Positions 53,092 through 54,283 of a DNA stretch of 64,000 nucleotides are shown here, piece by piece. A program made the translations under genes and the position numbers. Position 1 is the first letter of the stretch. The number at the start of each line of letters is the position of its first letter. The notes beneath the pieces were generated by a model, which worked only from the letters and a program-made list of their open reading frames with translations, made no database searches and had not been told where the DNA came from. Origin of the DNA: Patescibacteria group bacterium (GTDB taxonomy: Bacteria > Patescibacteriota > Doudnabacteria > UBA920); the NCBI GenBank assembly GCA_013387205.1, contig WARV01000002.1, forward strand, positions 3,341-67,340, in the 5' to 3' direction.

Positions 53092-53113
53092 TTTCTTTGA
53101 GTTTACTCCTCCC

Positions 53114-53509
53114 TTAACGGGGAGGAGTTTCTTTTACCAGCTGTTTTTGCCAGCCGCCGAGCATTTTGCCTACTTCTGTCAGCGGTTGAGCCAGTGCTGC
53201 CATCTGCTTGCTATTAATGGCTTTCAAATCAAAAGCCATTTGTAGGAAGTATTTGAGTAAATCTAAAATCAAACTCGCTTTGTTTATCACTTCAAGTTTT
53301 TTGTCCTTGTTGGAATAACCGGCAACTAAAATTAGTTCAACCAGTTGGATAAAAAGACTATTGATTTTTTCACCGAGTGAATGCTTTAGTAACTTGGGTG
53401 TATGAGGCAGGTATTGATACCACAGTTTGAATGCGGCTGAAATTTTTTGGACAATCGGTAAGTCCGTGGTGGTAGTAAAATTTCCGTTGGGGGGGGTGTT
53501 AAATGACAT
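53114..53509 (-). CDS. avd: Avd-like DGR accessory protein (four-helix-bundle family), transcribed divergently from the RT (track ORF extends to 53554; Met-16 is a more likely start)
   Basis: ~130 aa; helical LG..I..L....E pattern of the TIGR02436/Avd family; lies between the TR and the RT. Confidence 0.55.
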   Translation of the reverse strand: MSFNTPPNGNFTTTTDLPIVQKISAAFKLWYQYLPHTPKLLKHSLGEKINSLFIQLVELILVAGYSNKDKKLEVINKASLILDLLKYFLQMAFDLKAINSKQMAALAQPLTEVGKMLGGWQKQLVKETPPR

Positions 53510-53530
53510 AAATGAGCAAAAATAATAAAA

Positions 53531-54283
53531 ATGACAAAAATGAGAAAGCAACACAGAAAGCTATATCCGTTCTTTGAAAAAGTTTTTATTGCCGATTCCT
53601 ATTCCTGCCAGATTGGTAAGGGGACGCATAGAGCCATAATCCGCTTTAACAAATTTTACCGGCAGGCCAGCAAAAATAACCGCCACACGGTTTGGGTGCT
53701 GAAGTGCGACATTAGGAAATTTTTTGCCAGCATTGACCATAAAGTTCTACTTGAAATTCTGGCCAGTTATATCTCTGATAAAAATATACTTTGGCTGCTG
53801 GAAAGGGTGATAGAAAGTTTTAACTTTGAAAGAGAAGGTAGGGGTTTGCCGCTGGGCAATCTGACAAGCCAGCTTTTTTGCAACGTGTATATGAACGAGT
53901 TTGACCAATTCGTAAAACACAGGTTAAAAGCCAAATATTATATCCGTTATGCCGATGATTTTGTATTTTTGTCATCTGATAGAAATTCATTGCTGGCGCT
54001 TATTCCGAAAGTTTCAGCGTTTTTGGACGAGCAGCTAAAATTGTCCCTGCATCCAGATAAAATTTTTATCAGGACTATGGCCAGCGGCGTGGACTTTTTG
54101 GGTTGGGTAAATTTTTCTCACCATCGGGTGCTGCGGAACGTAACCAAGCGGCGGATGTTCAAAGGCATAAGGCAGCGGTCGAAGAACGAAACGCTGCAAT
54201 CGTATTTGGGTTTGGTGAGCCATGGTAATACGTTCAAGATAAAACAGGAGGTGTTAAACTTGTATGGGTTACTTGCCGGATAA
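53531..54283 (+). CDS. DGR reverse transcriptase (short, 250 aa; N-terminal motif 0 region apparently absent)
   Basis: RT motifs SYSCQIGKGTHRAI (1/2), LGNLTSQ (DGR-specific [ILV]GxxxSQ in motif 4), YADDFV (motif 5). Confidence 0.85.
   Translation: MTKMRKQHRKLYPFFEKVFIADSYSCQIGKGTHRAIIRFNKFYRQASKNNRHTVWVLKCDIRKFFASIDHKVLLEILASYISDKNILWLLERVIESFNFEREGRGLPLGNLTSQLFCNVYMNEFDQFVKHRLKAKYYIRYADDFVFLSSDRNSLLALIPKVSAFLDEQLKLSLHPDKIFIRTMASGVDFLGWVNFSHHRVLRNVTKRRMFKGIRQRSKNETLQSYLGLVSHGNTFKIKQEVLNLYGLLAG

Follow-up and report, generated by a model that had tools for sequence, protein, structure and literature searches.

The question raised by this locus is whether a run of eight cytosines near the start of a small gene could decide if a bacterium hypermutates one of its own proteins. 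The locus lies in a 64-kb stretch of Patescibacteria DNA (contig WARV01000002.1), referred to here as the window, in which we scanned the region 51000-55500 for open reading frames (ORFs) and repeats. It is a diversity-generating retroelement (DGR) of the Patescibacteria, also called the candidate phyla radiation (CPR), and the window holds one template repeat (TR), one variable repeat (VR), one avd gene and one reverse transcriptase (RT) gene. A preliminary description of this DNA had proposed that a poly-C run within avd could act as a slipped-strand on/off switch. Comparative evidence from relatives supports this proposal: the tract is present clade-wide, its length differs between alleles of the same strain, these alleles shift the reading frame, and other types of repeat take its place in some lineages. 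We consider it likely that the locus is a CPR DGR of the B3 architecture with a deleted RT, in which the avd repeat would represent a hypermutable contingency-locus switch on targeted hypermutation. Judged from the sequences of the clade, this repeat probably turns targeted hypermutation on and off. The gene and its repeat are located as follows.

53114 to 53509, minus strand: avd (accessory variability determinant), 131 aa, starting with ATG as MSFNTPPNG and in frame through C8; assigned by Pfam, NCBIfam and PDB matches.
53489 to 53496, minus strand: homopolymer C8 on the avd strand (G8 on the plus strand), avd codons 5 to 7; the window copy of a clade-wide simple-sequence repeat (SSR).

The minus-strand ORF had been taken for an Avd-like gene, and this was borne out. 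Its product matched Pfam PF22296 bAvd well above the cut-off (61.6 bits, GA of 40, E=1.2e-16), and its best PDB match was bAvd 4dwl, with 8ub7_B also recovered. The match to NCBIfam NF033474 DivGenRetAVD was just below the cut-off (77.6 bits for a cut-off of 80; E=7.7e-22). The 8-nt poly-C described in the 5' coding region as encoding TPPNG was found as well, reading AAC ACC CCC CCC AAC GGA (N-T-P-P-N-G). The window copy of avd is in the ON frame (ATG, 13 nt, then C8), and the next in-frame start is a GTG located 198 nt downstream, with no nearer alternative start. C8 is one of two G/C runs of at least 7 nt in the window, and it is placed in a 5' coding region, as is typical of SSR contingency loci. 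The other run, a G7 at 14111-14117, belongs to a 376-aa ORF (13113-14243); it is located some 44 codons upstream of its stop and thus not at a 5' end.

We then turned to the relatives of this locus, which comprised close loci found via the RT and 80 further Patescibacteria loci, all scanned for Avd. The avd 5' regions were extracted from all related loci and dereplicated to 134 lineages. Nearly all related loci harbored a poly-C (avd strand) downstream of the avd start and ahead of the conserved helix-1 motif ..LP[VI]xxK.. of Avd. Overall, a repeat was present at this site in 112 of the 134 lineages (102 with poly-C, 1 with poly-G and about 9 with another SSR), while 20 had none. The tract lengths, available for 103 lineages, showed no 3-nt periodicity (6 nt in 2 lineages, 7 in 6, 8 in 16, 9 in 25, 10 in 26, 11 in 20, 12 in 4, 13 in 2 and 14 in 2). 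Furthermore, 69 of the 72 G/C runs of at least 7 nt detected in 444 kb of related loci were located at the avd/RT junction. Two of the three off-junction runs are G10 runs of a single locus, L040 (3404-3413 and 5253-5262); one lies just past the RT stop and the other immediately before a second, weak Avd-like ORF (5265-5673, E=5e-5). In the subclade of the window, the peptide encoded before and after the tract is conserved, M-[STA]-[FL]-N-x-(C)n-N-G-N-[FL], and the tract is therefore translated, at least in this subclade.

The base composition of the tract varies as well. We found (GA)n or (TC)n at the tract site in L011, L055, L148, L150, L151 and the P0094 lineage, (CA)n or (GT)n in L044 and L019, with (CA)7 in L044, (CCAG)11 in L046, and a 77-nt array of about 10-11 AGCAATC units in L060. 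In four of these (L046, L060, L055 and L044), an upstream ATG was in frame through the repeat into Avd. In the P0103 lineage (L176-L179), the avd ATG is immediately followed by a poly-G of the coding strand (ATG-G8/9), indicating that the identity of the tract base is not conserved and that only its repetitiveness is. Among the repeat-free loci, L014 has ACC CCG CCG CCG (TPPP) in place of the tract within an uninterrupted ORF from the same ATG. Similarly, L027 and L042 have an uninterrupted avd ORF from this ATG, and the L093 subclade reads MANPLP from it.

These repeat-free loci matter for the position of the avd start. A conserved ATG is found 34-37 nt upstream of the tract, and it was initially taken as independent evidence for the start; we dropped this argument because the ATG is the complement of a conserved histidine codon of the RT. 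Indeed, in a large subclass (for example L009, L014, L027 and L078), the conserved His7/8 codon of the RT (CAT), read on the other strand, serves as the start codon of avd, so that avd and RT overlap head to head by about 21-24 nt. Conservation of the ATG is thus no proof in itself; what supports this start is its use in the repeat-free loci L014 and L027. A CATATG palindrome is shared by the avd and RT ATGs of the P0094 lineage.

Length variation was assessed in seven strain-level groups of relatives, each defined by an identical RT protein on contigs from different samples with identical flanks; the strain of the window itself is represented by a single contig. The repeat length varied between samples in five of the seven groups. 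The P0019 lineage had G10, 11, 11, 14, 11, 11, 12, 10, 11 and 11, the P0013 lineage, which is the closest relative of the window, G10, 8, 8 and 10, the P0119 lineage 9, 9, 10 and 9, the P0103 lineage (poly-G on the avd strand) 8, 8, 8 and 9, and the P0094 lineage (GA)17, 22, 15 and 19. Lengths were equal in P0010 (8, 8) and P0072 (11, 11). In all polymorphic groups, the repeat was the only indel in whole-locus alignments of 2.4-3.4 kb.

The substitutions in these groups were confined in a different way. In P0019, all 19 variable columns among 1,225 aligned nt upstream of the RT fell in the VR (columns 199-286), and the longer 3.4-kb alignment contained one further cluster at its far end (columns 3356-3409). 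Substitutions were likewise located in the VR in P0094. Because of this clustering, the DGRs of these relatives must be active in nature. Besides the VR, the only hypervariable site in these loci is the repeat. Moreover, the length alleles shift the frame: Avd was in frame with C12 only in P0019, with G9 only in P0103 and with (GA)15 only in P0094. The called Avd lengths changed with the allele: a 132-aa Avd was called in P0019 only with C12 and a 142-aa Avd in P0094 only with (GA)15, while in P0103 avd was called with G9 only. The relatives thus show what is seen at contingency loci, namely, a repeat whose length varies among otherwise identical genomes and whose alleles change the reading frame.

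We propose the following mechanism. Slipped-strand mispairing at replication would change the length of the repeat, and the avd start codon, located upstream of the repeat, would thereby move into or out of frame with the downstream part that encodes the four-helix bundle. Avd would then be made or not made in a heritable, reversible and stochastic manner, and the repeat would act as a contingency-locus switch on top of a targeted hypermutation system. Work on the bRT-Avd complex has shown that the RT depends on Avd to synthesize cDNA (PMC7826257), and frame switching would therefore toggle retrohoming. We infer that translation would start upstream of the tract in all lineages, that an out-of-frame tract would mean no Avd, and that switching would control retrohoming. 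Beyond this, we lean slightly toward a broader scenario in which hypermutation by CPR DGRs is gated by the avd contingency locus, so that most cells would keep a fixed variable protein and a minority would diversify, with selection acting on mutability itself. Indeed, an independent replacement of poly-C by (GA)n, (CA)n, (CCAG)n and (AGCAATC)n would mean just such a selection.

The surroundings of avd had been presented as a non-canonical architecture. The two features that flank the gene are the following.

52998 to 53090, plus strand: TR, with 25 adenines, of which 16 are substituted in the VR.
53531 to 54283, plus strand: DGR RT remnant of 250 aa, consisting of the native start and about 8 codons followed by an 86-codon deletion, with the junction near 53552/53553; based on profile matches, homologue lengths and alignments.

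The avd gene lies on the minus strand between these two plus-strand features, and 21 nt separate its ATG (53509-53507) from that of the RT (53531), which confirms the coordinates of the earlier observation, including its gap of about 20 bp. The claim of novelty did not survive comparison with known CPR architectures. Counting the window, avd was on the opposite strand immediately upstream of the RT in 75 of 76 clade loci (74 of 75 relatives), with L006 as the sole exception. This layout, in which avd is encoded on the reverse strand, has been published as Architecture B3, TR-(avd)-RT (Wu et al. 2018, NAR 46:11; PMC5758913), and it accounts for 90% of CPR DGRs (PMC5758913). It is thus already known and usual for the phylum. 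An assembly inversion of avd was also rejected, since the same orientation was found in 74 of 75 independent assemblies.

The RT turned out to be the unusual part of the window copy. It had been described as either 5'-truncated or unusually compact, and only the first of these descriptions holds. The ORF is intact from ATG to stop, contains LGNLTSQ and YADD and has intact motifs from 2a onward; upstream, its frame is closed by an in-frame TGA (53513-53515), in line with the stops reported previously. However, almost all of the 120 best RT homologues have 330-340 aa, the nearest ones (80-83% identity) having 334-338 aa, and the profile matches begin only at position 29/205 of RVT_1 and position 85/353 of the group II RT model. 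Compared to L005, the window shows a single clean in-frame gap of 258 nt (86 codons), flanked by homologous sequence at either end. Compared to its closest relative L085 (Avd 86% identical), it has 58 nt in place of 308 nt. The deletion joins approximately codon 8 to RKLYPFF at the end of motif 2. The RT therefore does not begin at motif 1, as had been stated, but keeps about 8 native N-terminal codons and continues at the end of motif 2.

What was lost could be mapped through the full-length relative P0007, which aligns with the Bordetella phage RT (bRT, 8ub7_A, the closest solved structure) over residues 10-303 (E=2.4e-41). The deleted part is equivalent to bRT residues ~10-90 and covers motifs 0-2: the N-terminal extension and motif 1 are gone, as is most of motif 2 with PKPR, whose arginine (Arg74, R74) is predicted to be part of the dNTP pocket of bRT (PMC7826257). 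With these elements gone, cDNA synthesis has most likely been lost. The RT would then be inactive, and the element could produce cDNA only with the help of a second RT in trans. The possibility of an N-terminal motif upstream, or of a split RT gene with its N terminus encoded elsewhere, was rejected, as a tblastn search of the whole window with the first 100 aa of six full-length relatives recovered residues 91-100 only (53552-53581). A natural class of compact RTs was rejected as well: the short homologues were contig-end fragments or carried separate lesions, such as a TAG nonsense codon in L192 (P0108; ..DNIL*LQ..) and a frameshift near codon 10 in the P0119 lineage (L171-L175). Decay of the 5' third of the RT thus seems to recur independently in the clade. 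Taken as it stands, the sequence of the 250-aa RT indicates a deletion derivative, an ordinary product of decay. According to Wu et al., more than half of the candidate DGRs are inactivated (PMC5758913). The description that suits the locus best is that of a B3 DGR that decayed recently and retains the switch of its clade, now a relic beside a broken RT.

Several points weigh against a switch in avd. In the homopolymer lineages, a permissive phase linking the upstream ATG to Avd exists in 100 of 103, and the assembled tract was in this phase in 30 of the 103, compared to 37 expected at random (p = 0.15). The assembled phase thus bears no sign of selection for ON, and the same result would arise if translation were independent of the tract. 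Random phase fits rapid switching with an OFF default, but it fits equally well a non-heritable attenuator based on RNA slippage. Additionally, an in-frame TTG, GTG or ATG was present between the tract and helix 1 in 58 of the 103 lineages, and such starts could permit a tract-independent, leaky production of Avd. Twelve other near-identical pairs or triplets showed no difference in length; the pace of switching is therefore too slow for all consensus sequences to differ. Some of the +/-1 differences may be artefacts, long G/C homopolymers being error-prone in sequencing and assembly; the (GA)15-22 and C8/C9/C10 alleles are harder to dismiss in this way. As for the window, its RT deletion could in principle be an assembly error and, being in frame, would also be compatible with retained function. 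Two candidate tests were set aside. The in-frame fraction was uninformative given the 30 observed and 37 expected, and a hand-counted link between the lack of an alternative TTG start and an in-frame tract did not hold in the full census (Fisher p = 0.51).

The same phases bear on an explanation at the RNA level, according to which RNA-polymerase slippage or ribosomal frameshifting on the C/G run would mix frames in every cell; a fixed attenuator would keep Avd scarce while the DNA phase drifts. Such a model would account for assembled phases that are indistinguishable from random and for the DGR activity, demonstrated by VR variation, of at least two lineages (P0019 and P0094) from the out-of-frame majority. 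It would also agree with the drop of the in-frame fraction with tract length, from 19/49 (6-9 nt) to 11/54 (10-14 nt). We nevertheless find it unlikely. Transcriptional slippage is best documented for A/T runs, and the di-, tetra- and heptanucleotide repeats at this site are classic substrates of DNA slippage and poor substrates of RNA slippage. Furthermore, length alleles exist at the DNA level between samples. Quite unlikely, in our view, is that the G-run belongs to the promoter of the RT or to overlapping divergent promoters, its length setting the -35/-10 spacing and tuning a leaderless RT mRNA rather than the frame of avd. Arrays of 40-77 nt (L046, L060) and (GA)15-22 do not fit a 17-bp spacer, the distance from the run to the RT ATG ranges from 4 to 52 nt across the clade, and the P0103 run stands directly after the avd ATG on the coding strand. 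It is true that a TANNNT-like hexamer follows the run directly on the RT strand (T in 50/67, A in 32/67 and the final T in 43/67 loci), but its "TA" is equally explained by a conserved Thr codon (ACC). The CTGGCA-like box located ~16-18 nt from the hexamer (hand count) is, in turn, the complement of conserved Avd Leu-Pro codons. What still speaks for a promoter is the position of the RT ATG in 24 loci, exactly 13 nt downstream of the run and 7 nt downstream of the hexamer.

Could the tract have no function at all, as a poly-proline N terminus using CCC codons or as sequencing noise? An in-frame tract does encode Pro-Pro(-Pro), and L014 encodes TPPP with mixed codons. We consider this very unlikely, however, since 71% of the lineages are out of frame and the tract lengths are not confined to multiples of 3, the long G/C runs of the 444 kb are concentrated at this single site, and unrelated repeat motifs take the place of the tract there. 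Moreover, CCC accounts for a minority (17%) of the proline codons in the window, and CCC-CCC does not occur among the 21 Pro-Pro pairs of its long ORFs. Finally, hardly any credit remains for a new, non-canonical DGR design that combines an inverted avd with a naturally compact 250-aa RT, an idea that has been largely refuted. The layout is unlike that of the Bordetella phage prototype, and the RT ORF runs from ATG to stop across an in-frame deletion, as such a design would have it. However, the layout is that of B3 and universal in the clade, and 0 of the 120 best homologues was a genuine short form, the short calls being due to contig ends, a nonsense codon or a frameshift. In addition, the deleted part includes motifs for dNTP and template binding. 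We thus retain the reading of the avd repeat as a slipped-strand switch, carried in the window by a DGR with a deleted RT.

The short region between the avd and RT starts deserves a separate description.

53501 to 53547, plus strand: avd-RT spacer made of 9-nt TGACAAAAA units, one arm of a "family M" palindrome; both start codons fall within it, that of avd at 53507-53509 (minus strand) and that of the RT at 53531.

As noted previously, the RT start lies inside a half copy of a family M repeat. A 24-nt segment of the spacer is repeated exactly in the window (53518-53541 = 4361-4384), and a search with the 19-nt repeat unit allowing up to 3 mismatches gave 12 matches for 0.09 expected. The alignment with L085 had suggested the insertion of an M repeat as the cause of the RT truncation. 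This was dropped, as L005, from a different metagenome-assembled genome (MAG), has the same TGACAAAA-type avd-RT spacer and an RT start inside a unit (xTGACAAAA, read as xTG ACA AAA) together with a full-length RT. The spacer is therefore native to the sublineage and not the cause of the deletion. Besides the half copy at 53501-53547, family M copies are found at 838-930, 4345-4440 and 16163-16260. They are imperfect AT-rich palindromes with arms of 9-nt TGACAAAAA units, and they occupy short gaps between two same-strand genes, right after the stop of one and before the start of the next. Family M may represent a promoter/terminator module or a binding array for a regulator.

The remaining parts of the DGR are located upstream of avd. 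On the plus strand, the 210-aa target ORF is followed by a non-coding stretch and then by the 250-aa RT ORF.

52016 to 52648, plus strand: DGR target gene, 210 aa, an ORF with the VR at its 3' end (last 32 codons).
52552 to 52644, plus strand: VR, 93 nt, 83% identical to the TR.
52709 to 52743, plus strand: terminator-like hairpin and T-run 3' of the target gene, with a 15-pair stem (8 GC pairs) followed by TCTTTTT.
53105 to 53128, plus strand: GC-rich hairpin and T-run directly 3' of the TR, overlapping the avd 3' end and stop, with a 10-pair stem (ACTCCTCCC/GGGAGGAGT) followed by TTCTTTT.

Over their 93 nt, the TR and VR differ at 16 positions, and 16/16 of these mismatches are at TR adenines (12 A>G, 2 A>T and 2 A>C). 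The target has thus been diversified in the past, because every TR/VR difference corresponds to a TR adenine. The bias toward A>G is strong (12/16). Read in the target frame, all TR adenines (25/25) occupy first or second codon positions. Only 4 nt separate the end of the VR from the stop codon of the target, and the TR and VR have the same final 21 nt. The locus therefore displays adenine-confined TR/VR differences, a 3' VR in a coding target with a downstream hairpin, an RT with [I/V/L]GxxxSQ and YxDD, and an Avd accessory protein; what is missing is a complete RT, with its N-terminal extension and motifs 1-7. The target protein belongs to no Pfam family and gave no family match in Pfam and NCBIfam profile scans.

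The hairpin that follows the TR is probably the terminator of the TR RNA, a detail that favors the layout. A hairpin with a T-rich tail equivalent to 53105-53128 was found in 113 of 131 related lineages, with differing stem sequences. Given its position, the TR RNA would probably be a short, separate transcript that is convergent with avd and that would not read antisense through avd into the RT. This conservation suggests that the post-TR hairpin of B3 DGRs may be a conserved terminator or an RNA element of the TR transcript. In the region 51600-54400, no Rfam family was found, the sole matches being chance matches to a palindrome.

Further features were noted around the DGR. Upstream of the target gene lies a 48-nt perfect palindrome without a loop (arms 51815-51838 and 51839-51862), which abuts a perfect match to the sigma-70 consensus promoter (TTGACA-17-TATAAT, 51863-51891), and a second hairpin is located at 51906-51961. 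At 2.5 kb downstream of the DGR, a 2,098-aa ORF (56776-63072) contains many VDVNGDGLPDFVYSG-type repeats, YD/Rhs-like repeats and a Gly-rich C terminus. Its product is probably a large surface or toxin-delivery protein.

To our knowledge, the regulation of DGR activity is largely uncharacterized, and retrohoming without restraint should carry a cost. The genomes of CPR bacteria are tiny and encode few regulators, yet these bacteria harbor a large share of the known DGRs; CPR DGRs are reportedly the subject of work by Paul et al. from 2017. If our reading is correct, a stochastic repeat switch on avd would explain how these bacteria ration hypermutation. It would link two classic bet-hedging devices, contingency loci and DGRs, in a two-tier evolvability system that has so far not been described. 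In practice, the phase of the tract provides a simple marker: it is readable in metagenomic data, and its correlation with VR microdiversity can be examined. Surveys that drop "frameshifted" cassettes may drop DGRs that are switched off but functional, and gene callers mis-annotate avd in most related loci (as 98-, 109-, 117- and 121-aa forms) or miss it. The window itself has a more modest meaning, that of a decayed copy whose RT has lost its N-terminal third.

A text search of the 2018 survey of Wu et al. (PMC5758913) returned no passage on the avd repeat. Similarly, a full-text search that did not extend to Paul et al. 2017 found no literature linking DGRs or avd with homopolymers, SSRs, phase variation, slippage or frameshifts. 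What appears to be new is hence the 5' repeat of avd, together with its hypervariability and its convergent replacement by other repeats, as a combination of a DGR with an SSR contingency locus, each of a known kind.

Of the known systems, the CPR B3 cassette (PMC5758913) is the closest. It shares with the window the order of a target with a 3' VR, TR, reverse-strand avd and RT, as well as the Patescibacteria hosts, an RT with the [ILV]GxxxSQ motif and adenine-specific TR/VR differences, and it differs in that the window copy has an 86-codon internal RT deletion. The DGR of Bordetella phage BPP-1 (mtd-avd-TR-brt; bRT-Avd 8ub7, bAvd 4dwl) has the same protein parts and the same signature of adenine mutagenesis. 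However, avd is here located on the other strand between the TR and RT, with avd and RT starts that are back to back or overlapping, and the TR is directly followed by a terminator-like hairpin, whereas BPP-1 has a spacer running into the RT. Additionally, avd carries here a hypermutable repeat, and the RT of the window is truncated.

SSR contingency loci of Neisseria, Haemophilus and Campylobacter carry poly-G/C or 2-, 4- or 7-nt repeats in their first codons and undergo ON/OFF phase variation by slipped-strand mispairing. The avd repeat resembles them in its position just past the start codon, its unit sizes that are not multiples of 3, its frame-switching length alleles among identical sequences, and its different motifs at one site in different lineages. 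In contrast, the gene concerned here encodes a cofactor of targeted mutagenesis rather than a surface or restriction-modification function, and the hosts are environmental CPR bacteria. Homopolymers can also act as promoter spacers, as do the poly-C tract of Bordetella pertussis fim and the porA/opc tracts of N. meningitidis. The locus shares with these a G/C homopolymer beside a -10-like hexamer in a short divergent control region. However, its tract lies inside an ORF and needs to be read through, and some lineages carry arrays that are too long for a promoter spacer.

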